A model generated the notes under the pieces. That model worked only from the letters and a program-made list of their open reading frames with translations, was not told the DNA's origin and did no database searches. A stretch of 50,808 bases of DNA from a virus. The stretch is from UHGV virus genome UHGV-1367122; one strand, given 5' to 3'. Made by a program: the position numbers and the translations under genes. Shown here in pieces: positions 2,676 through 50,808 of this stretch (position 1 is the first letter of the stretch; each line of letters opens with the position of its first letter).

Positions 2676-4283
2676 GTGCATTACAACATAGATAATATGC
2701 CACAAGAAAGATTTAAGTCATTAAAGGAGATGCAAAATGAGGTGGACAGTAGCAAAAATAGCGCGGTAAACCCCAAAGAGCTGCTAAGGCTTGAACTTTT
2801 AACGTCATTCGAAAAATATACAAAAGCGCTGTTTAAGGCGCAATACCACCGGTCCTTTATAGTAGCCGAGCATCATAAGAAGATGTTCTCGGCGCTGCAA
2901 GATGTTGTAGACGGTAATTGTAAACGCCTTATTATTAATATCGCGCCACGATACGGGAAAACAGAACTTGTAATTAAGTCATTTATATCATGGTGTTTCG
3001 CGCTTAACCCAAAATGTAGGTTTTTGCATCTATCATATTCAGATATACTTGTAAATGATAATTCAGATACAATTAGGTCCATTATGATGGAGCCACTCTA
3101 TACAACTCTTTTCCCCCAATCAGCTCTTGCATCCGAGAAGGGCTCAGCTAAGAGGTGGAAGACCAAGGCTGGAGGAGAGCTGTACGCCGTATCAACCCAA
3201 GGCCAGGTAACTGGTTTTGGTGCAGGAAATGTTGATATTGACCCGGAACTTGACAAAATGGATGGCGGCAATAACATTTTCGTATTTGACGACCATACAA
3301 ATGAAATGCTGAACATGATTGGCGCCACTACTAACATATTTCAAGGCGCTATTGTCATCGACGACCCAATTAAACCAGAAGATGCGGAGTCTGATATTGT
3401 GCGTGAGCGTATTAACCTGCGTTTTGAAAATACTATACGTAACCGTACTAACTCGCGTAATACACCAATCATAATTATTATGCAAAGGCTACATGAGCAC
3501 GACTTGTGCGGCTATTTGCAAGAGATAGAGCCGGATGAGTGGACCGTATTATCGCTTCCAGCAATCCAAACAGACCCAGAAACAGGAGAAGAGCGCGCAT
3601 TGTGGCCTATGAAGCACACCTTGGAAGAACTCTATAAGATGAGAGCGCTTAATCCGGTTGTGTTTGATACGCAGTATATGCAAGACCCGACGCCTAAAGA
3701 GGGTCTTATGTATGCCGAGGGCTTCAGAACGTACAGAAGAGAGGAGCTGCCATCTGGCAATAAGGCAATTCAGAAATGGAATTACACAGATACTGCTGAT
3801 ACAGGTGCAGATGATTTGTGCTCTATATGCTTTATAAATACGCCAGAGTATGCGTACGTGACAGATGTTTTGTTCACAGACGCCCCTATGGAAGTGACCG
3901 AAAATAAGAATGCGGAGATGCTCACTAGAAATCAAACTGTAGAGACACTAATCGAATCGAACAATGGTGGTAGAGGCTATGCGCGCAATGTCAAACGTAT
4001 ATTAAGAGTTGATATGAAGAACTTTAGGTGCGTTATACGGACATTTACGCAAACAGAAAATAAGAAAACACGCATTTATACTAACTCTGCCTGCGTTATG
4101 AACGACATATTGTTTCCAGAAGGGTGGGAAAGGAGATGGCCTAAGTTTTATAGCGCCCTGATGTCTTATAGAAAAGATAACAAAAAGCGTAACCAGCATG
4201 ATGATGCGCCAGATGCGTTAACAGGCGTATATGAGATGCACGCTAAAAAAGGAGGCAGGAAGAAAATCAAAACTCGTAATTAA
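2676..4283 (+). CDS. terL: Terminase large subunit (535 aa)
   Basis: Walker A-like APRYGKT; size, gene order before portal, and C-terminal acidic nuclease-like region. Confidence 0.7.
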   Translation: MHYNIDNMPQERFKSLKEMQNEVDSSKNSAVNPKELLRLELLTSFEKYTKALFKAQYHRSFIVAEHHKKMFSALQDVVDGNCKRLIINIAPRYGKTELVIKSFISWCFALNPKCRFLHLSYSDILVNDNSDTIRSIMMEPLYTTLFPQSALASEKGSAKRWKTKAGGELYAVSTQGQVTGFGAGNVDIDPELDKMDGGNNIFVFDDHTNEMLNMIGATTNIFQGAIVIDDPIKPEDAESDIVRERINLRFENTIRNRTNSRNTPIIIIMQRLHEHDLCGYLQEIEPDEWTVLSLPAIQTDPETGEERALWPMKHTLEELYKMRALNPVVFDTQYMQDPTPKEGLMYAEGFRTYRREELPSGNKAIQKWNYTDTADTGADDLCSICFINTPEYAYVTDVLFTDAPMEVTENKNAEMLTRNQTVETLIESNNGGRGYARNVKRILRVDMKNFRCVIRTFTQTENKKTRIYTNSACVMNDILFPEGWERRWPKFYSALMSYRKDNKKRNQHDDAPDALTGVYEMHAKKGGRKKIKTRN

Positions 4284-4284
4284 T

Positions 4285-4500
4285 ATGGAAAAGATGATAA
4301 GCCCAAATGGTGTAAAAGCAAATATGTGTTGCGCAAGTTGCTTATATTACAACTCTATACGATTTTTTTTTGCAAGCCATAATATAAAAAGATTGTGTAC
4401 TAAGAAAGATAAAGCTATAGTTGATGGTAGGTATAAATGCGGGTATTATGTAATGGCTAAATTCTTTCAAGAACGAGGCTATAAGACGATAAAAGATTAA
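4285..4500 (+). CDS. Small Cys-containing hypothetical protein (start trimmed to the ATG after the terL stop)
   Basis: ORF track 4231-4500; the in-frame ATG at 4285 avoids overlap with terL. Confidence 0.3.
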   Translation: MEKMISPNGVKANMCCASCLYYNSIRFFFASHNIKRLCTKKDKAIVDGRYKCGYYVMAKFFQERGYKTIKD

Positions 4501-29569: not shown

Positions 29570-29983
29570 ATGGAACAGTTCAATATCAAAAATGTGATTG
29601 AGTACTACAAGCTGAATACAGAAGATTTAGCAAAGGTACTATTTCCTGCCATTAAATATCCAAAGCAGGCACTTGATAGAGTACTGAAAGGCGAAGGTAC
29701 TCTGGACATTACGCAGGTTGAAAAATTGGCCAACTATATTGGCGTGTTAGTAACTGATTTGTTCTCAGCAAATACCTGGAAAGGCTCTGCTGAAGATGGG
29801 TGCCTTACTTTACTGAAAGGCCAGTATAAAGCCAAGCTTAATTATAATGGCGTGTACTTATCTATATATAAAGATAATGTACTAATCGAGCAGAAAATAT
29901 CAAATATACCTAGCATGACAATTCAAGAGTTTATTAACTTTTTAGATAACTTAATTAAAAATTATGAAAATGGAAGCCATTAA
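29570..29983 (+). CDS. Hypothetical protein (137 aa), possible HTH regulator
   Basis: ORF track; weak helix-turn-helix-like segment; first gene after the promoter. Confidence 0.35.
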   Translation: MEQFNIKNVIEYYKLNTEDLAKVLFPAIKYPKQALDRVLKGEGTLDITQVEKLANYIGVLVTDLFSANTWKGSAEDGCLTLLKGQYKAKLNYNGVYLSIYKDNVLIEQKISNIPSMTIQEFINFLDNLIKNYENGSH

Positions 29984-30410
29984 AATTTCCGTAGAGGTTA
30001 GCGTAAACCTGTCAGAAAATACGCAGAACTTCATCAAGTCGCTGTTTGGCGGCACAATAGCGGCAGTAGCAACGCAGACCCAAAAATCCACTCCCGAGGC
30101 ACCTGCCGCATCCGCTAAACCGGCTTCTCAGCCAGTCACCGCGGTCACTCCTGACGCTGAAGCACCTGCCGCTGAAGCACCTGCCGCTGAAGCACCTGCC
30201 GCTGAAGCACCTGCCGCTGAAGCACCTGCTGCTGAAGCACCTGCCGCTGCTTCTAAAAGCATAGAAGACGTGCGCAAGATGCTTGTCCAAAAAGTAGACG
30301 CACATCGTGACGCCATTAAGCAGAAACTCAATGAGTTGGGTGCACCAAGCGTAACAAAACTCGACCCGTCTAAATATGACGATATGTATAATTTCCTTAA
30401 TTCACTTTAG
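29964..30410 (+). CDS. Protein with a (EAPAA)x7 tandem-repeat linker (148 aa)
   Basis: 15-bp DNA repeat GCTGAAGCACCTGCC x7 at 30166-30255. Confidence 0.5.
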   Translation: MKMEAIKISVEVSVNLSENTQNFIKSLFGGTIAAVATQTQKSTPEAPAASAKPASQPVTAVTPDAEAPAAEAPAAEAPAAEAPAAEAPAAEAPAAASKSIEDVRKMLVQKVDAHRDAIKQKLNELGAPSVTKLDPSKYDDMYNFLNSL

Positions 30411-32403: not shown

Positions 32404-32484
32404 AGTATAGTAGTTTAATGGTAAAACCACAGAGCGCCATTGGTTTGTGTGCCTGTTATGCGGGTTCGAGTCCCGCCTATACTC
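32404..32484 (+). tRNA. tRNA-like element (81 nt) with canonical acceptor, D and T arms but no regular anticodon stem-loop
   Basis: Acceptor AGTATAG/CTATACT, D-arm GTTT-AATGGTA-AAAC, T-arm GCGGG-TTCGAGT-CCCGC all perfect; the 31-nt central region fits no 5-bp stem/7-nt loop in any register. Confidence 0.45.
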
Positions 32485-32512
32485 CTATTTGTAATATAAA
32501 TTTTATAGGCGT

Positions 32513-43414: not shown

Positions 43415-44261
43415 AGAAAAAGGCGGCCACTTAGAAGACAGTGAGCTATATGATTTTATAGAAGAGATACAAAGCGAAGACGTAAAAGGAGAAAGCACCG
43501 AAAAAACAAGCGGCGAGGCGCAAGATATTATTTCAGAGCTGCCTGAAAACGCTGAAATTGAGGCCTATTACGGTAATGACGCCTGGAGAATGCCGCCTAT
43601 ATATGCGGGAAACCAAGGTCGTATTACTGTACTATATGGGCCTGAAGTTAAACAAAAAGCGGCTGAAGGGCGCAGAGAAGCCGCTAAAGAAAAAAGTCGG
43701 CGCCTAAAAAATGAGAGACTGCGTATTCAACGAGAAGCCTTTAGTCAGGAGCTAATAAGTTTAAGCGACAAAATAGAAACGCCGCATATAAAATTGCTTA
43801 TAGCCGCGCTGACGAAAGAGCATACTCGCATGATAAATAGGTACTCCAGTTTTATAAATAACCGGCTTACCTCGTTACTAAATCCTTTTATACCACCCCG
43901 CTTAAAAAATTGTAGGCTACTTTATCCGGATTCCATACGCATGAGCCCTGGCTTTATGTATAAAGCGAGTAAAGAATACGGGAACGGGTTAACCTTCTGG
44001 GCGACGCCTTTAATACCCTATTACTTTGCGCAAAATACAGAGCAGGCCATACTACTAAAAAACAAGCCTACATTTTTATACTCAATTGATAAGGCTGTAG
44101 GCTTTTACCATTGGCACTTAAAACAAAGGCAAGAAAAAGAGCTTAGATACGCCTCTGCTGTTATACAAAAAGGCGTCTCTTCTTATTATGATTTGCTTAA
44201 GTTTAATCCTTTTTGGTTTGAAGTACTGTATAACGAATTAAAAAATAAACAAGATGACTAA
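43401..44261 (+). CDS. Hypothetical protein (286 aa), translationally coupled to the downstream response regulator
   Basis: The stop overlaps the start of 44254-44952. Confidence 0.45.
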   Translation: MESIEEKGGHLEDSELYDFIEEIQSEDVKGESTEKTSGEAQDIISELPENAEIEAYYGNDAWRMPPIYAGNQGRITVLYGPEVKQKAAEGRREAAKEKSRRLKNERLRIQREAFSQELISLSDKIETPHIKLLIAALTKEHTRMINRYSSFINNRLTSLLNPFIPPRLKNCRLLYPDSIRMSPGFMYKASKEYGNGLTFWATPLIPYYFAQNTEQAILLKNKPTFLYSIDKAVGFYHWHLKQRQEKELRYASAVIQKGVSSYYDLLKFNPFWFEVLYNELKNKQDD

Positions 44262-44952
44262 TCAAGTTGCGCTACCACGCATACTAGTCTATCAAGACGA
44301 AGACTGTAGCGTATTATTAGAGTATTTAACTTTTTGTGGATTCGGAGTAATAGAGGCCACAGAAGAAAATGTGCTGGCTAAAATACAGGATGGCCGGTAT
44401 GATATGTGTATTATAAGCCCACTTAAGGCTTGCGCAAAAGATAATTTTAAGCTTTTACGGGCGCAAAAAGAGGCTGATAAAAACAAGCCCATAATTTTTT
44501 TATCCGGCTTATCCGCGTATACTTGTAAGATAGAAGCCTTTGAGCTAGGCGTCGATGACTATGTTATCCGGCCCTTTAATTTTGAGGAGCTCGTTTATAG
44601 AATAAAGGCTTTATTAAAGAGGTGCGGTATTAAAAGCCGAAAAATAGAGGACACTTATAAAATAGGTAACTATACCTTTAATACGCAGTTCAAAAGCTTG
44701 GAGTTAAAAGGAACAGAAATAAAGCTAACTATCATAGAAAACAAAGTACTTGCCCTCTTATGTGCGTACCAAAACGAGATACTTACAAAAGAAATGTTAT
44801 TGCGCGATATATGGGGAGACGATAATTTTTTTATTAAGCGTAGCTTAGACGTTCACGTATGTAGGCTGCGAAATCATTTGAAACAGGACAGTAATATAAA
44901 AATAGAAACGGTTAGGGGTTTAGGCTATTCCCTTACGGTATCTAATAACTAA
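44254..44952 (+). CDS. OmpR/PhoB-family response regulator (receiver domain + winged-helix DNA-binding domain), 232 aa
   Basis: REC-like ILVYQDED...RYDMCIISP...PIIFLSG...GVDDYVIRPF (conserved Lys replaced by Arg); C-terminal LTIIENKVLALLCAYQNEILTKEMLLRDIWG...RSLDVHVCRLRNHL...IETVRGLGYSL matches the Trans_reg_C domain. Confidence 0.75.
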   Translation: MTNQVALPRILVYQDEDCSVLLEYLTFCGFGVIEATEENVLAKIQDGRYDMCIISPLKACAKDNFKLLRAQKEADKNKPIIFLSGLSAYTCKIEAFELGVDDYVIRPFNFEELVYRIKALLKRCGIKSRKIEDTYKIGNYTFNTQFKSLELKGTEIKLTIIENKVLALLCAYQNEILTKEMLLRDIWGDDNFFIKRSLDVHVCRLRNHLKQDSNIKIETVRGLGYSLTVSNN

Positions 44953-45050: not shown

Positions 45051-46091
45051 TTAGATAAGCGGGTCCGCTTCATTTGCAGCGTCCGCCGACTGCGTGTCCG
45101 CTTCATTTGCGGCGTCTGCCGACTGAGCGGCCTGAGCCGCCAAATAAGCCTCTAGCTTAGCCTTTGCCTCGGCAAGCACCTTGCGCTTTGCCTCTAGTAC
45201 TTGCTCCGCTTTTTGCAGCCGTTCCTCAGCTTTTTTTACAGCCTCTTCGCAGAAAAGCACGCGCTCCTGTGGATTAAAAGATTCTGAGTTGCCTTTGTTT
45301 TCAAGGCGCGCACGATACTTCTTATTGCGTGCCAGACCCTCTTCGTCAAAGTCTTCGGCAATTTGCAAGTCGGCACTTGTTACTTTGTATACAAATTTTA
45401 CTGCCTCGGGGTCCTCGGCCGTGGGTGCAGGCGTTGCTATTTTGTAGAGCAAGCTCTTGGCTCGTTTGTCAATAACTATTGCTACAATACGGCCGTCACG
45501 GTAGTCTACTTTTTTGCCTACGTTTTCAACGGCTTTGCTAAGCTCCTCTTCTACTCTTTCGGGAGTCCATTCTACACGGTCTTTTGCTTTGCGCTTTTTT
45601 CTTTCAAGCGTTACGGTGGTATCCAGTATCTTCAGCAGCTTGCTGTCATGCACCTTAACAATACGGCGGCTATCGTTGGTCTTAATAGCGTAAAGCACTT
45701 TGTTGCTGCGCTTGTCCTCTACGACGCCGGCTATATAGCCGTCAACCCACTCAGCGCTATTAAAAGGCACAACCTGACACATGTGGTAAAGGTTGCCTTT
45801 TAACTCGGCAGCAATAGCGTGCCGTTCCTCGTCAGTCAGCTTGGCTGCTTTATTTTGCGCGCGACCGCTATAAAGCGGGTTAAGCCCATCATTATTCTCG
45901 GCGGCCTCAATTGCGGCCTCTTCCTCGGGAGTAAGAGGCTCTTCGTCTACAGCCTCAGCAGCATTAGCCATTTCCATTTGTTCGCGCTTGGCAAGCTCGG
46001 CCTCAATAGCCGCTTTGTCCTCTTCGTTTGCCGTTGCCAGGAGGGCATTTAATTTCTTCGTCGCCAGCTTCTTAAAATTTTTGGTTGCCAT
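45051..46091 (-). CDS. Hypothetical acidic, Ala/Glu-rich protein (346 aa) with C-terminal tandem QSADAANEAD repeat
   Basis: ORF track; 30-bp tandem duplication at about 45060-45125. Confidence 0.5.
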   Translation of the reverse strand: MATKNFKKLATKKLNALLATANEEDKAAIEAELAKREQMEMANAAEAVDEEPLTPEEEAAIEAAENNDGLNPLYSGRAQNKAAKLTDEERHAIAAELKGNLYHMCQVVPFNSAEWVDGYIAGVVEDKRSNKVLYAIKTNDSRRIVKVHDSKLLKILDTTVTLERKKRKAKDRVEWTPERVEEELSKAVENVGKKVDYRDGRIVAIVIDKRAKSLLYKIATPAPTAEDPEAVKFVYKVTSADLQIAEDFDEEGLARNKKYRARLENKGNSESFNPQERVLFCEEAVKKAEERLQKAEQVLEAKRKVLAEAKAKLEAYLAAQAAQSADAANEADTQSADAANEADPLI

Positions 46092-46226
46092 AGTTTTGAA
46101 AATTAAAAGAGTTAAACGTTATTTTTGCTTTTTGCTCTATTTTCATGTACAAAGATACTAACTTTTTTTGAGCCGCAAAAGTTTTTATATAAATTATTAC
46201 GCTAAAATTATTTAACACCTCTGGTG

Positions 46227-46385
46227 TTATTCGTCCGCGTTAACCACGCCCAAGACAACTGCGAGAGCTATAAGGGCTAAGGCGCTAATAACAAGCCAGA
46301 AAGGCGAAAATGCCTCAATAAAAGGCACACCTAAAAACACGACAAGCATGCTGACACCGTTTAATAAATTTTTATACCGTTTCAT
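46227..46385 (-). CDS. Small hydrophobic protein (~52 aa, two TM segments), below the ORF-track size cut-off
   Basis: Manual translation MKRYKNLLNGVSMLVVFLGVPFIEAFSPFWLVISALALIALAVVLGVVNADE. Confidence 0.3.
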   Translation of the reverse strand: MKRYKNLLNGVSMLVVFLGVPFIEAFSPFWLVISALALIALAVVLGVVNADE

Positions 46386-46390
46386 TTTAC

Positions 46391-46894
46391 TTAATTATTA
46401 ATGGTTAGTACTACATGGGCTTCGCCATACACGCGAACCTCGCCACACACCTCAGAGTTACCGTACACGTTAACTCCACCGCACACGTGAGCCCTGCCAT
46501 GTACATGGGCCTCGCCGTGCACACGGGCCGCGCCATATACATAGGCCTCATCGTACACATGGGCCTCGCCGTATACCCAAGCCTCGTCGTCTATATGGGC
46601 TTCACCATACACGTGCGCCCACCCACATACGATGGCCTCGCCGTATATTTGAGCCTGGCCGTATACTTGAGCCTGGGCGTACACGATGGCATCATCATAC
46701 ACATACGCGCTGCCGTACACGCAGGCCTCGCCGTACACCCAGGCCATATCATGCTGCGATAAGTTTTCTTCGCTTTCGATAAAGCCACCTTTATCGCCTT
46801 TTTTAACTCGGCCGAAATCCCGTAAAGCCTCTATCCTGTAGAGGGTGTGGCCGTCAATAGTAATTGTCTCCTGAGTGAGCTTGTACTTTTTCAT
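46391..46894 (-). CDS. Hexapeptide-repeat (xVYGEA) protein, paralogue A: conserved ~48-aa N-terminal domain + ~18 repeats
   Basis: N-terminus MKKYKLTQETITIDGHTLYRIEALRDFGRVKKGDKGGFIESEENLS; 18-bp DNA periodicity. Confidence 0.7.
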   Translation of the reverse strand: MKKYKLTQETITIDGHTLYRIEALRDFGRVKKGDKGGFIESEENLSQHDMAWVYGEACVYGSAYVYDDAIVYAQAQVYGQAQIYGEAIVCGWAHVYGEAHIDDEAWVYGEAHVYDEAYVYGAARVHGEAHVHGRAHVCGGVNVYGNSEVCGEVRVYGEAHVVLTINN

Positions 46895-46915
46895 TTTAGT
46901 AAGTTTTAAGGGTTG

Positions 46916-47695
46916 CTATTTTACGTTAGGCACCTTGTCGTATGCGCGGGCCTGCCCACACACACAGGCCTGGCCGCTCACGATAGCTCCGCCATGCACG
47001 CGAGCCTCGTCGTACACGCGAGCCTCGTCGTACACGCGAGCCATGTCGTACACCAAAGCTTCGCCATACACCAAAGCCCTACCGTACACCCAAGCCCTGT
47101 CGTACACACGGGCCTGACCATACACACAGGCCTGGCCGCGCACTACAGCCTTGCTGTACACATAGGCATGGCCGTATACGCTAGCCGTGTCGTGCACACA
47201 GGCCCAGCCGTACACGTTAGCCTCGCCGTACACGCGGGCACAGCCATACACCCAGGCCCCACCGTACACACGGGCCTGACCGTACACGCGAGCCTCTTCG
47301 TACACATAGGCTTCATCATACACACTGGCCTCACCATACACCCAAGCCCCGCCATACACGACGGCCCGGCCATACACAATAGCTTTGTCGCACACGATGG
47401 CCTCGCCATACACGCGAGCCCGGTCACACACAGCGGCCTCACTATGTATGTGGGCGTCGCCGCACACACAGGCCTGACCGCGTACGATAGCCTGACCGTA
47501 CACACGGGCCTTACCGTACACACGGGCCTTACCGTATACCCAGGCCGTGCCATCGTGCGATAGGTTTTCTTCGCTTTCGATAAAGCCGCCTTTGTCGCCT
47601 TTTATAACGTCGCCGAAATCCCGTAAAGCCTCTATCCTGTAGAGGGTGTGGCCGCCAATAGTAATTGATTCCTGAGTGAGTTTGTACTTTTTCAT
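46916..47695 (-). CDS. Hexapeptide-repeat (xVYGEA) protein, paralogue B: same N-terminal domain + ~35 repeats
   Basis: Nearly identical N-terminus; conserved upstream context TAAAACTTACGAAAATG. Confidence 0.7.
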   Translation of the reverse strand: MKKYKLTQESITIGGHTLYRIEALRDFGDVIKGDKGGFIESEENLSHDGTAWVYGKARVYGKARVYGQAIVRGQACVCGDAHIHSEAAVCDRARVYGEAIVCDKAIVYGRAVVYGGAWVYGEASVYDEAYVYEEARVYGQARVYGGAWVYGCARVYGEANVYGWACVHDTASVYGHAYVYSKAVVRGQACVYGQARVYDRAWVYGRALVYGEALVYDMARVYDEARVYDEARVHGGAIVSGQACVCGQARAYDKVPNVK

Positions 47696-47779
47696 TTTCG
47701 TAAGTTTTAGTATTGTATATTTTGCATCGTGCCGCCGTAGGTGTCGCTCCTAAGCCGTTTCTTTCCGCGGCGGCTAGAG

Positions 47780-47968
47780 TTACGCGTTTTCCTGAGGAGT
47801 GCCGTCCCATTCCGCTTGTTGCTCTAGCACAATATACCGTGCTTTCTTCACCCGGCACATAAGTGCAGCATAGCACTCCGCGTCCTTTAGGTTTTCAAAG
47901 CGCTCCATAATAGCGGGACTAAAAGTAGAGCTGTAGGCTTTAGCTACGTAAAAAATTTTTGTTTCCAT
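47780..47968 (-). CDS. Small hypothetical protein (62 aa)
   Basis: ORF track. Confidence 0.35.
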   Translation of the reverse strand: METKIFYVAKAYSSTFSPAIMERFENLKDAECYAALMCRVKKARYIVLEQQAEWDGTPQENA

Positions 47969-48007
47969 TTTACTATAATTTAAGTTATTAATACATTTAG
48001 AGTTTTA

Positions 48008-48253
48008 TCAAAGGTACGTTGTAAATCGGTTTGCCATGCGCAGCGCGGTGTCTTTAGATAGTAAATCAAAGCAACCCGTCCACTCCTCTTTGCGGATTAG
48101 TTTGCCGTCAACAAACTCCCACATATCTATGGTATCGCGGATAAATAAATAGCTGTGTTTACTAATACGCACCTTTACGCCGTTATCGCCTGTCACAACA
48201 AAACAAGGCCGCGGCTTGCCGTCAACATAAAATTTTGTTTTTCTCACTTCCAT
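48008..48253 (-). CDS. Small hypothetical protein (81 aa)
   Basis: ORF track. Confidence 0.4.
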   Translation of the reverse strand: MEVRKTKFYVDGKPRPCFVVTGDNGVKVRISKHSYLFIRDTIDMWEFVDGKLIRKEEWTGCFDLLSKDTALRMANRFTTYL

Positions 48254-48272
48254 TTTACTATAAATTTTAGAA

Positions 48273-48506
48273 TTATTTCACGCCCATTTTTCGCGCGTAC
48301 TCATCTATTTGCTCGCGCGTAAGCCACTCCGGCTTTACGGGCAACAAATCATAAAGCTCACGCATTTTATCGATTTGTTTTTGCTCGTCGCGGGCCCAAA
48401 GGCAGTGCACCGCAGTTGGGTGCCCGTGTTGGGCAAGGTAGTACTCGCAGTCGCAGCGAAGGCGGTCCAATAGCATGTAGTTAAATTTATTTTGGTCCAT
48501 AATCAT
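48273..48506 (-). CDS. Small hypothetical protein (77 aa)
   Basis: ORF track. Confidence 0.4.
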   Translation of the reverse strand: MIMDQNKFNYMLLDRLRCDCEYYLAQHGHPTAVHCLWARDEQKQIDKMRELYDLLPVKPEWLTREQIDEYARKMGVK

Positions 48507-48750
48507 TACGCATAAAGTTGGTTAAATAAAGCCTTTTGCCAAACATTGTTATATAGGGGAGCGCATTTCTTGTGGTGTAACGTATTTCTTGCCACCGGCC
48601 GCGGATTATTTCCGTGCCACGTGAGGACCAATGTATTGTAGACCTGTAGCGCGCCGCGTCTCCTTGCCGGTTGATTTGGATTTCCAGCTTCTCGGCTATG
48701 CCATTTATTAAATAGCCGTGAGATATAAATTCGTTCCTATTGTTTTCCAT
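48487..48750 (-). CDS. Small hypothetical protein (87 aa), first gene downstream of 75-bp element copy 2
   Basis: ORF track; element 13 bp upstream. Confidence 0.45.
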   Translation of the reverse strand: MENNRNEFISHGYLINGIAEKLEIQINRQGDAARYRSTIHWSSRGTEIIRGRWQEIRYTTRNALPYITMFGKRLYLTNFMRNDYGPK

Positions 48751-48762
48751 AATGCTTTACTA

Positions 48763-48836
48763 TTTATTATTATACCTCAAAGGTAGCGCTTTATTTTTAA
48801 CTACGGAAATTTTTTATACTAACGAAGTCTAATTTT
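48763..48836 (-). promoter_or_regulatory. Copy 2 of the conserved ~75-bp leftward promoter-like element
   Basis: Nearly identical to 50541-50615 and 471-544. Confidence 0.55.
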
Positions 48837-48879
48837 TAGGCTATTAAGTAACTATTTCCCAGCGTTTCACTTTATTAAT

Positions 48880-49293
48880 TTACCCGACGATAGAAATTTT
48901 GCCTCCGTCGTTGTAGTACTTCATGCCCAGCACGCTGTACACCGGTGTGAAAATGGGGTAACCATGTCTACCTAAGTTGTAAAAGCCGCAAAATGTAAAG
49001 TCTTCGGGCGCTGTGTCGCGAATTATTTCTAACTCGCGATAATCCAGCGGCTGCCCTTTTCGCGGCTCGCCGTTGCCCTTAATAAGGCTCCGCAGCCATT
49101 GCAGTCCCTTCGCGCCTTGCTCTGGCGTTACGGGTATGCCATAGCCATCATTAATCCTATCTAAAAGGTTGTAGTCGAACACGTCGTGCCCCTCGTTATT
49201 GGAGCGGTTTTTAAGTAAGCGTATTTCTTGCTCTTTAATGTCGCCATTGTTGCGCACATTCTCAAAAATTTCTTCGTTTGTTGTCTTTTTCAT
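48880..49293 (-). CDS. Hypothetical protein (137 aa)
   Basis: ORF track; shares upstream context TAAAACTTACTAAAATG. Confidence 0.45.
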   Translation of the reverse strand: MKKTTNEEIFENVRNNGDIKEQEIRLLKNRSNNEGHDVFDYNLLDRINDGYGIPVTPEQGAKGLQWLRSLIKGNGEPRKGQPLDYRELEIIRDTAPEDFTFCGFYNLGRHGYPIFTPVYSVLGMKYYNDGGKISIVG

Positions 49294-49336
49294 TTTAGTA
49301 AGTTTTAAGGATTAGTATTATAGCTGGGTCTACTAC

Positions 49337-50050
49337 TTAATAAGCCTCATACATTTCGCTTTCGCCGCGCACGATGGCCCGGCCACGCACTTTAGCCCGG
49401 CCGTACGCACGGGCTTTGTCGCATATAACGGCCTGGCCGTACACCTCGGCACAGTTGTACACGCGGGCTTCGCCATATACGCAGGCGTAGCCGTACACCT
49501 CGGCCTCGCCGTACACCTCGGCCTCGCCGCACACGCGGGCATGCCCTTCTACCTCGGCATAGCCGCACACGCAAGCTTTATCATATATGTACGCCTCGCC
49601 GTACACGCGGGCCCTATCGTATATCGACGCATTGTCGTTTGCGCCGGCCTTACCGTACACGCGGGCCCTATCGTATACACGAGCCTGACCTTCTACATCG
49701 GCATAGTCGTATACGCGGGCCCAATCATATACACGAGCCTTGTAGTACACCTCGGCCTCGCCGTACACGCGCGCATAGTCGTATACGCGGGCCTCGCCGT
49801 ACACCTTAGCATTGCCATATACGCAGGCCTCGCCATACACATGGGCCTCGCCATACACATGGGCCTCGCCATATACGCGAGCCTCATCGGCAACCCAGCA
49901 CGTGCCGTCGTGCGATAGGTTTTTTTCGCTTTCGATAAAGCCGCCTTTATCGCCTTTTTTCACGTCGCCAAAGTCCCGTATGGCCTCTATCCGATAGAGG
50001 TTGCAGCCGTCAATAGCAATTGATTCCTGAGTGAGTTTGTACTTTTTCAT
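49337..50050 (-). CDS. Hexapeptide-repeat (xVYGEA) protein, paralogue C (~31 repeats); start moved to the conserved MKKYKL
   Basis: The ORF-track N-terminal extension (to 50164) covers the conserved upstream motif TAAAACTTACGAAAATG, so the internal ATG at 50050 is preferred. Confidence 0.65.
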   Translation of the reverse strand: MKKYKLTQESIAIDGCNLYRIEAIRDFGDVKKGDKGGFIESEKNLSHDGTCWVADEARVYGEAHVYGEAHVYGEACVYGNAKVYGEARVYDYARVYGEAEVYYKARVYDWARVYDYADVEGQARVYDRARVYGKAGANDNASIYDRARVYGEAYIYDKACVCGYAEVEGHARVCGEAEVYGEAEVYGYACVYGEARVYNCAEVYGQAVICDKARAYGRAKVRGRAIVRGESEMYEAY

Positions 50051-50136
50051 TTTCGTAAGTTTTAGGTTACTATGGCGCCCAGTAGGAGAATCGAACTCCC
50101 GCGCAGCCTCCCAGGCCTGGGCTATGGTGGCTCGTA

Positions 50137-50520
50137 TTATTCCGGTATTACTACTATTGTCCATTCGAAGCCAGTCGCTCTTTCTAGGCGCTCCCGCTCG
50201 TACTCAGCCGCGCGCGGGCTACCGCAGATAGTTGGGCAATAGTCTTTGCGGCATCTCTTGGGCTGCACCATCCACTTTCTGAGGTCCGTGCTTTTCTGCA
50301 GCATCCGGTGGATATGCTCCGCCCAGAAGCTTCGGGCCGCACAGTCGTCAGCGCTCTTGCCGGTGCTTTGTAAAACGGCATCCTCTTGGTCTGTGCTGTC
50401 AATTTCGGCGCGGTCGCCATATCGGCCATAAGTTACACGGCAACCTAGCTCCGCCGCTTTGTCAATTAAGGCCTGCCATTGCTTGTTGGCGTATTCGTTT
50501 CGGTAGTACGTTTTAACCAT
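50137..50520 (-). CDS. Hypothetical protein (127 aa), first gene downstream of 75-bp element copy 3
   Basis: ORF track. Confidence 0.5.
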   Translation of the reverse strand: MVKTYYRNEYANKQWQALIDKAAELGCRVTYGRYGDRAEIDSTDQEDAVLQSTGKSADDCAARSFWAEHIHRMLQKSTDLRKWMVQPKRCRKDYCPTICGSPRAAEYERERLERATGFEWTIVVIPE

Positions 50521-50540
50521 TTTGCTTAAGGATTATTATT

Positions 50541-50615
50541 CTTTATTATTATACCGTGAAGATAGCGCTTTATTTTTAACTACGGAAATTTTTTATACTA
50601 ACGAAGTCTAAAATT
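50541..50615 (-). promoter_or_regulatory. Copy 3 of the conserved ~75-bp leftward promoter-like element
   Basis: TTCTTTATTATTATACCGTGAAGATAGCGCTTTATTTTTAACTACGGAAATTTTTTATACTAACGAAGTCTAAAA; minus-strand reading gives GGTATAATAATAAAG about 30 nt before the ATG. Confidence 0.55.
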
Positions 50616-50756
50616 TTTAAGTAATCCGCATTTTTTCCTGGGGGGGCTAGCGTCTAAAAAATGTTAAATATCGTTAGGGCTTTGGCAATTTTAGCACTTT
50701 TCCCACGGGGCATTAAGCTGCGAAGGAGCCAGCATTATAAAGACCAAAGGGGGCTA

Positions 50757-50808
50757 GTGCTAAGAGCCTATGGGGCTTATGCGGCTAAGAGCCTATGGGG
50801 CTTATGCG
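50757..50808. repeat. Two further copies of the same 25-bp tandem repeat, truncated by the window end
   Basis: Exact match to the unit at 1-75; implies a circular permutation or terminal redundancy junction. Confidence 0.9.

Follow-up and report, generated by a model that had tools for sequence, protein, structure and literature searches.

Three phage genes for predicted YdcK-type beta-solenoid proteins of variable repeat number in an accessory arm of virus genome UHGV-1367122

The virus genome UHGV-1367122 (50,808 nucleotides, analysed over its full length and called the window below) is a tailed-phage genome of about 50.8 kb, in which one arm on the minus strand (45051-50520) is divergent from the remaining genome. 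This arm carries three paralogous genes, named A, B and C here, which are the subject of this work (coordinates in Table 1). A first-pass annotation, made from the letters alone, had noticed three minus-strand genes with a nearly identical N-terminal domain of about 48 residues, and the open reading frames (ORFs) indeed lie where it placed them. All three products start with MKKYKLTQE, and their first 48 residues, the N-domain, are 81-88% identical in amino acids and 84-91% in nucleotides. After residue 48, each protein continues in one unbroken register of six-residue repeats (hexads), 19 in A, 35 in B and 31 in C; the numbers proposed earlier were right for B and C and one too low for A, which had been credited with 18.

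Pooled over A, B and C, the 85 hexads have the consensus [G/D]-x-A-x-[V/I]-Y. Alanine is kept in 79 of them, valine or isoleucine in 80, glycine or aspartate in 79 and tyrosine in 58, and both x positions are hypervariable, with an entropy above 3 bits. It had been proposed that this register does not follow the canonical hexapeptide rule. Such a departure exists for Tyr at position i+1, while Val (i) and Ala (i+4) fit the rule.

Profile searches assign the three proteins to a catalogued family. The Pfam model PF18836 ('YdcK beta solenoid repeat') matches B with 63.0 bits (E=9e-18) and C with 43.5 bits (E=1.7e-11); A, with 28.9 bits (E=8e-7), remains slightly under the 30-bit gathering score. 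Full-length matches were obtained to phrog_5070 (E=9e-62 to 5.5e-117, the best being B) and phrog_7964 (E=3e-58 to 1.6e-92; 1.8e-85 for gene C), and PHROG 20149 matches the N-domain alone. With hidden Markov model E-values down to 1e-117, this signal is far beyond chance. PHROGs 5070, 7964 and 20149 are catalogued as phage proteins with no function assigned. When phmmer was run against the PDB, the sole matches were the Salmonella YdcK structures 2F9C and 2PIG (E=6.8e-14 for B), with the N-domain aligned. The best NCBIfam family is YdcK_fam (NF040481), to which A, B and C score 81, 97 and 95 bits against an equivalog cut-off of 350 bits, so that, judged by these scores, they are distant relatives of YdcK and not its orthologues. 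From sequence comparison, A, B and C almost certainly belong to the YdcK-type beta-solenoid family (PF18836; PHROG 5070/7964; fold of 2F9C). The earlier opinion that N-domain plus repeats form no characterised family did not survive these searches: the architecture is that of YdcK in 2F9C/2PIG, PF18836, NCBIfam and the PHROGs. The combination is already catalogued, and a known, functionally uncharacterised family gains new members. A match to a family of known function did not emerge, no paper having been found that gives YdcK one.

YdcK itself (E. coli b1428 and the Salmonella protein) shares with the window proteins the homologous N-domain, YRL..L.QI.A..DF.DVKAG..GG.....N.LSQ.G.CW, and a hexapeptide solenoid with the motif VYG[DNH]A[RT]V, which appears in YdcK as IYGDARV, LYGNATI or VYGHARV. 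YdcK is a chromosomally encoded protein of 326 amino acids whose coils are irregular and whose C-terminal half is longer and less repetitive, whereas the window proteins have 19-35 perfectly regular hexads, end directly after the array and are encoded by genes that are phage-borne, multi-copy and length-polymorphic. The PHROGs of which A, B and C are direct members include orf229 of Streptococcus phage Sfi19 and a hypothetical protein of Bacteroides phage BF10P2. Most of their members possess an extra C-terminal domain of about 70 amino acids (WWSSGR-type, DUF7666/DUF5758 and others) that is missing from the window proteins, and most viral loci examined hold one copy, in contrast to three in the window phage.

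The fold of the gene B product was predicted with AlphaFold2 (AF2) from an alignment of 45 sequences. The model (predicted local distance difference test, pLDDT, 80.4; predicted TM score 0.72) exceeds pLDDT 90 at residues ~90-200 and 95 in the core, and has two-residue strands every six residues with three hexads per turn. At the level of prediction a three-sided solenoid is thus supported, in agreement with the original description of a paralogous beta-helical hexapeptide-repeat family with variable copy number. The remaining four of the five models of B have pLDDT values of 56-71, and the model of A is confident only for the N-domain and the first ~5 hexads and fails past residue 84. The model of B superposes on the right-handed solenoids of TibA and Ag43 at 2.8-3.5 Å (2.8-4 Å when pertactin and tailspikes are included), and on YdcK and all other left-handed helices at 11-12.5 Å. 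Foldseek returned the YdcK structure 2pig with a TM score of only 0.31, its other weak matches being right-handed helices. The model probably shows the mirror hand of the YdcK fold, perhaps because the predictor mistakes the hand of idealised hexad repeats; going by homology, the predicted solenoid would rather be left-handed, like YdcK.

If the right hand of the model is nevertheless taken literally, the proteins come close to bactofilins, and their solenoids might stack end to end into filaments that reorganise the infected cell. Bactofilins (PF04519, DUF583) likewise have a three-sided beta-solenoid with about 18 residues per turn and the right-handed geometry of the model of B, which fits TibA and Ag43 and is some 12 Å away from left-handed structures; the non-YdcK matches of Foldseek point in the same direction. 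Their Pfam model gives 16.0 bits for A, 26.8 for B and 25.3 for C, the latter two just under the gathering threshold of 27.9, which none of the three reaches. The NCBI pipeline labels several phage homologues 'polymer-forming cytoskeletal protein', and the C-terminal end of the window proteins has no cap domain. However, matches to YdcK are better and significant (PF18836, 63 bits; 2f9c, E=6.8e-14) and include the folded N-domain, which bactofilins, with their roughly six turns and disordered tails, do not have and which would obstruct head-to-tail polymerisation at one end. The model that suggests the right hand is itself weakened by the pLDDT of 56-71 in four of five models of B and by the failure of that of A. 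We regard a bactofilin-like polymer as quite unlikely.

A relationship to the enzymes with left-handed beta-helices (LbH) has also to be considered. In that case A, B and C would be acyl- or acetyltransferases that form trimers and acylate a substrate from the host or the phage. YdcK is labelled putative transferase in databases, some phage homologues are annotated as acyltransferase or 'trimeric LpxA-like', and NCBIfam models of LpxD, GlmU, LpxA and NeuD give weak matches. Their scores of 12-33 bits are far under the curated cut-offs of 160-666 (for example, 31.5 versus 207 bits), and Pfam Hexapep (PF00132) is not matched by A, B or C at E<=1. In the 45-sequence alignment, the only invariant columns are I21, G33, G36, G37 and W52, all in or just after the N-domain, and the conserved columns of the repeat region are all Ala or Val except G193. 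Neither the alignment nor the hexad register reveals any conserved surface His, Asp or Ser or any inserted loop in the repeat region. Unlike LbH acyltransferases and gamma-carbonic anhydrases (LpxA, LpxD, GlmU, Cam), the window proteins are devoid of a Hexapep match, catalytic residues and loops, have Tyr at i+1 instead of Gly, Ala, Glu or Asp, and vary in array length; an array of 12-35 hexads that changes by single hexads is hard to square with a fixed active-site geometry. Moreover, we found no paper showing an activity of YdcK. An enzymatic role is therefore decidedly improbable. Because there is no conserved solenoid surface and there are no active-site loops, the sequences make a non-enzymatic scaffold rather likely.

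At the DNA level, the arrays are much less regular than the 'near-perfect 18-bp tandem repeats' of the first-pass annotation. In the long rows of period 18, Tandem Repeats Finder scores 61-74% matches. Compared in pairs, the 18-bp units have a mean identity of 0.58-0.61, exact repeats within the arrays extend to at most 16, 28 and 30 nt, and identical neighbouring units occur only as short runs of two or three; in gene B, runs of perfect units lie at 46997-47053 and 47490-47536. At the Gly, Ala, Val and Tyr sites, the first two codon positions hardly change, while the third varies (GCC/GCT/GCG, GTG/GTA, TAC/TAT). The N-domains have a dN/dS of 0.19-0.32 with a dS of 0.2-0.56; evidently, the paralogues are old and constrained. 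The arrays reach 56-62% G+C, compared with 40.8% in the genome, because of their Gly, Ala and Val content.

Long open frames on both strands had been predicted and are confirmed by the ORF list. We judged the overlapping long ORFs at 46913-47563 (plus strand, 216 aa), 49541-49918 (plus strand, 125 aa) and 47143-47553 (minus strand, 136 aa) to be spurious. In Streptococcus phage Sfi19 (NC_000871), the RefSeq gene orf129 (4089-4478) lies wholly within the YdcK-type orf229 in another frame; it is a spurious repeat-generated ORF of the same kind as those at 46913-47563 and 47143-47553. Arrays of this type thus yield spurious overlapping genes, one of them in RefSeq, and break short-read assemblies. 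An 8-bp inverted repeat, CGATAAAG-N4-CTTTATCG, recurs within all three N-domain coding regions (46777-46796, 47578-47597 and 49933-49952) and is probably coincidental. Candidate plus-strand terminators in these regions were rejected as a codon-level palindrome (D-K / F-I in GDKGGFIE).

Repeats often misassemble, several frames are open here on both strands, and short-read contigs of the phage break inside the paralogous N-domains, all of which would suit an assembly artefact or non-coding tandem repeats left open by chance. On the other hand, identity between units averages only 58-61%, and at 30 nt even the longest exact repeat is shorter than the k-mers of the assemblies (k119, k127). The perfectly periodic stretch of gene C (48 nt) is likewise far shorter than 119 or 127, and identical arrays were recovered from independent samples: in a separate gut metagenome, gene B is matched at 100% over 1,175 nt. 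The codon-position pattern, the dN/dS values and more than 2,000 protein homologues testify to coding constraint. The artefact that the first-pass annotation had reckoned with is effectively refuted.

Its expectation that the arrays gain and lose units, by contrast, was borne out. A contig of 50,805 bp (ENA ERZ27229705, k119_86072) represents the same phage and differs from the window along 6.8 kb only by a single gap of 18 nt, which drops one of two identical GEAHVY hexads of gene C and leaves a protein of 231 amino acids with 30 hexads. This gap coincides exactly with the only perfectly periodic 48-nt stretch (Table 1). The allele with 31 hexads was confirmed in a third sample, where a contig found via the neighbouring gene g137 (L108) is 100% identical over 2,133 nt. 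Gene C has thus undergone a copy-number change of a single 18-bp unit, and near-identical orthologue groups among database homologues differ by in-frame indels of 1-3 hexads. The position of the gap at the perfect run indicates that slippage does operate where a few units are perfectly repeated; over most of their length, the arrays have diverged too far for it. A comparison of repeat number in related genomes, suggested earlier, gave this one-hexad difference and nothing from the 80 syntenic relatives described below, whose fetched loci are without the family.

The regularly spaced surface positions of a rod-like repeat fold, together with the location in an accessory arm, also bring to mind DNA or polyanion mimics that would titrate host DNA-binding defence or replication proteins, comparable to pentapeptide-repeat proteins. 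A and C are acidic (net charge -12 and -7, array pI 4.6 and 5.1), but B is neutral to basic (net charge +1, array pI 8.3), Arg is the most frequent residue at surface position 4 of the hexad (24/85), and no charge pattern is conserved across homologues. With pentapeptide-repeat proteins (Qnr, MfpA) only the concept is shared, that of an idealised repeat solenoid with variable surface used as inhibitor; the window proteins have a period of 6 instead of 5, are predicted to be three-sided instead of four-sided, are not uniformly acidic and exhibit no homology to them. A general DNA-mimic role was rejected on the net charges of -12, +1 and -7, and we consider mimicry very improbable.

The family as a whole is very large. 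A search with the full-length protein gave at least 2,065 clusters, and the 50-aa N-domain alone found 4,644 representatives (50%-identity clusters) in 1.84 billion proteins. Many of the N-domain matches hold two to four tandem N-domain-plus-rod modules, in the light of which the B-A pair, with 21 nt between the stop codon of B and the ATG of A, looks like a split two-module protein. Among cultured phages, 80 records contain the family (Streptococcus, Liberibacter, Bacillus, Vibrio, Xanthomonas, Bacteroides, Mycobacterium and others), under labels such as hypothetical, acyltransferase, 'trimeric LpxA-like' and 'polymer-forming cytoskeletal protein'. In Sfi19, orf229 comes after a cro-like gene and before Gam/Sak4, with AcrIIA6 at a distance of 1.3 kb; other loci are situated beside cI-like repressors and YqaJ/RecT modules or among small genes with no known function. 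Whether the phage infects Firmicutes, Bacteroidota, Proteobacteria or Actinobacteria, the family is consistently met in an early or accessory context. Paralogue batteries occur elsewhere too, with four copies in one contig (172 kb) and five in another (239 kb), each of which is likely a large phage. In most homologues a further domain follows at the C-terminus (the unannotated WWSSGR type, DUF7666/DUF5758 or DUF3310) and one has an N-terminal MazG-like region; the window proteins end without such a domain, as does a minority elsewhere. A megablast search of the region against cultured phages gave no match, and a 26-nt pattern from the start of the N-domain coding sequence was absent from the viral and metagenome contig collections.

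In the window phage, the genes are an acquisition of its own lineage. The neighbouring 346-aa protein (g346) is encoded, at 51-56% identity, by 80 IMG/VR contigs of ~50 kb, whose backbone gene order is g127-g87-LPD11-g62-g346. YdcK-type genes were found in 0 of the 80 fetched loci of these syntenic relatives (tblastn, E<=1e-5), of which ~39 span the whole arm. In the window, C and g137 are inserted between g127 and g87, and B, A and g52 between g62 and g346. Given these two insertion points and the absence from syntenic relatives, the YdcK-type genes are a lineage-specific accessory acquisition at two sites. The location among small genes of the leftward arm, as first described, was confirmed: the other arm genes are small and unannotated, except for a stand-alone LPD11 protein. 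LPD11 is a domain described in 'polyvalent' conflict proteins of phages, plasmids and conjugative elements, in a paper that makes no mention of YdcK.

Taken together, these observations suggest the following mechanism. The 48-aa, beta-rich N-domain, held under purifying selection, would cap one end of a solenoid, and the loop-free hexad array would coil three hexads per turn into roughly 6 (A), 12 (B) or 10 (C) turns. By the canonical hexapeptide rule, Ala and Val would fill the core, and the hypervariable positions, with Tyr and Gly, would lie at the surface and corners. We infer that A, B and C are non-enzymatic binding or scaffold proteins in which the N-domain would be the functional end that stays constant and the rod would serve as a spacer or interaction surface, variable in length and surface. 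Rod length would shift by gain or loss of single 18-bp units, the step observed directly in gene C. The genes could act in the interplay of phage and host, in host takeover, counter-defence or exclusion, and probably early, as gene order suggests. To this reading as a whole, capped beta-solenoid binding or scaffold proteins of an accessory arm involved in host interaction, we incline with some reserve; the role in host interaction or counter-defence, taken separately, is a tentative proposal that may well prove wrong.

Several results weigh against parts of it. In its apparent hand, the AF2 solenoid disagrees with crystallised YdcK, and the details of the model are therefore not secure. PADLOC defence models matched 0 families at E<=0.1, and literature searches found no paper giving YdcK or its phage relatives a function; those on DUF7666, DUF5758, phage left-handed helices and anti-defence, and polymer-forming phage proteins returned no functional study. 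Independent samples have the same B and an A with one changed base, which speaks against rapid diversification of B and A. Regiella has a chromosomal member in a non-prophage context; phage conflict is therefore not the only setting of the family. As to early timing, scans of the arm for sigma-70 and Bacteroides-type promoters and terminators were not above shuffled expectation.

A broader version of the capped-solenoid reading is speculative and, in our opinion, unlikely: the YdcK-type module might be a widespread phage 'display scaffold' that gains and loses hexads by slipped-strand events and diversifies its two surface positions so as to bind and inactivate host defence or takeover targets, with variable C-terminal heads added or dropped and paralogue batteries covering several targets. 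If this were true, the family would be a new, very large counter-defence or host-takeover family and YdcK would receive its first function. Even if the proteins are host-interaction factors in the narrower sense, thousands of phage genes now called 'hypothetical', 'acyltransferase' or 'polymer-forming cytoskeletal' would become annotated. A crystal structure of the family has existed since 2005, yet we found no paper assigning it a function. The window offers a clean natural system in this respect, with three diverged head-plus-rod paralogues, close relatives that do not have them, and a single-hexad polymorphism.

Table 1. Positions of genes A, B and C, their parts, and neighbouring features in the window
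Feature	Position	Strand	Evidence or remark
Gene A, YdcK-type solenoid protein, 167 aa	46391-46894	-	ORF list
Gene A, parts	N-domain 46751-46894; 19 hexads 46409-46750; 5-aa tail and stop	-	
Gene B, YdcK-type solenoid protein, 259 aa	46916-47695	-	ORF list, profile matches, AF2
Gene B, parts	N-domain 47552-47695; 35 hexads 46922-47551	-	
Gene C, YdcK-type solenoid protein, 237 aa	49337-50050	-	ORF; open upstream to 50164
Gene C, parts	N-domain 49907-50050; 31 hexads 49349-49906	-	
Perfectly periodic 48-nt stretch, GEAHVY GEAHVY, polymorphism site in gene C	49826-49873	-	30-nt exact direct repeat, offset 18
Conserved leader TAAAACTTACTAAA	46895-46908 (A); 47696-47709 (B); 50051-50064 (C); 49294-49307 (g137)	-	
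g137, unknown 137-aa protein, directly downstream of C	48880-49293	-	no Pfam or PHROG match
g52, small hydrophobic 52-aa protein, directly downstream of A	46227-46385	-	ORF list
Repeated intergenic element, ~80 nt	48757-48838 (upstream of g87); 50536-50619 (upstream of g127)	-	alignment
Exact core of repeated element, 43 nt	48784-48826; 50563-50605	-	0 expected by chance
LPD11 stand-alone protein	48273-48506	-	PF18824, E=9e-27; kept in 42 relatives

A, B and C have in common the leader TAAAACTTAC[G/T]AAAATG, and homology of the paralogues begins sharply about 14 nt before the ATG. Gene C has both this leader and the common N-terminus, which puts its start at 50050; the longer alternative from 50164 (275 aa) was rejected. 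Exact look-ups of the 237-aa and 275-aa versions of C found neither in the gene index, and the A, B and C proteins were absent from the cluster table in exact look-ups. The leader in its form TAAAACTTACTAAA has four exact matches in the window, against about one expected at up to three mismatches. The fourth belongs to g137: over the region 48880-49307, this gene shares with gene A an identical leader of 26 nt together with the MKK codons, CCTTAAAACTTACTAAAATGAAAAAG, and is unrelated in the remainder. To judge from this junction, g137 resembles a cassette exchanged into the position after the start of a YdcK-type gene; no relatives of it were found in viral contigs or syntenic loci. The other small neighbour, g52, has no tblastn match in the 80 syntenic loci and adjoins A also in an independent contig (L106), and it may have been acquired together with B-A.

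Two copies of a ~80-nt intergenic element flank the block g127-C-g137. This element is a candidate duplicated promoter or operator for the two units holding B-A and C. Its copy upstream of g87 contains TACCTTTG, which fits the Bacteroides -7 motif TAnnTTTG. Rfam and tRNA scans detected no RNA element in the A-B-C region.

Elsewhere in the window, which represents a Bacteroides-type gut phage, genes for terminase, portal, tape measure, DNA polymerase, primase-helicase and exonuclease are present, the portal protein being 74% identical to the portals of Bacteroides fragilis phages BF503P4 and BF486P2. Shine-Dalgarno sequences are absent upstream of the genes, which is consistent with a Bacteroidota host. 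The window starts with 3.4 copies of a 25-bp unit, GCTAAGAGCCTATGGGGCTTATGCG (1-86), and closes with two (50759-50808). Since its first 50 nt recur as its last 50, the genome is complete and either circularly closed or terminally redundant, with the tandem repeat at the junction. Further alignment gaps of contig k119_86072, beyond that in gene C, may fall at this terminal repeat.

A tRNA gene is located at 32404-32485 on the plus strand (Rfam tRNA, 46.4 bits). ARAGORN reports it as 'tRNA-???' of 82 nt with a four-base anticodon (ccat); possibly it has an enlarged anticodon loop or is an odd tRNA-Met-like gene. An OmpR-type response regulator is encoded at 44254-44952 on the plus strand (Trans_reg_C, E=3e-20; receiver domain sub-threshold) and kept in 73 of the 80 related phage contigs, with no evident kinase nearby. 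In-frame coding tandem repeats are also found outside A, B and C: a 15-bp unit repeated 6.7 times at 30150-30249, inside the ORF 29964-30410, and a 33-bp unit present twice at 45059-45125, which encodes ADAANEAD...ADAANEAD at the C-terminus of the 346-aa protein.

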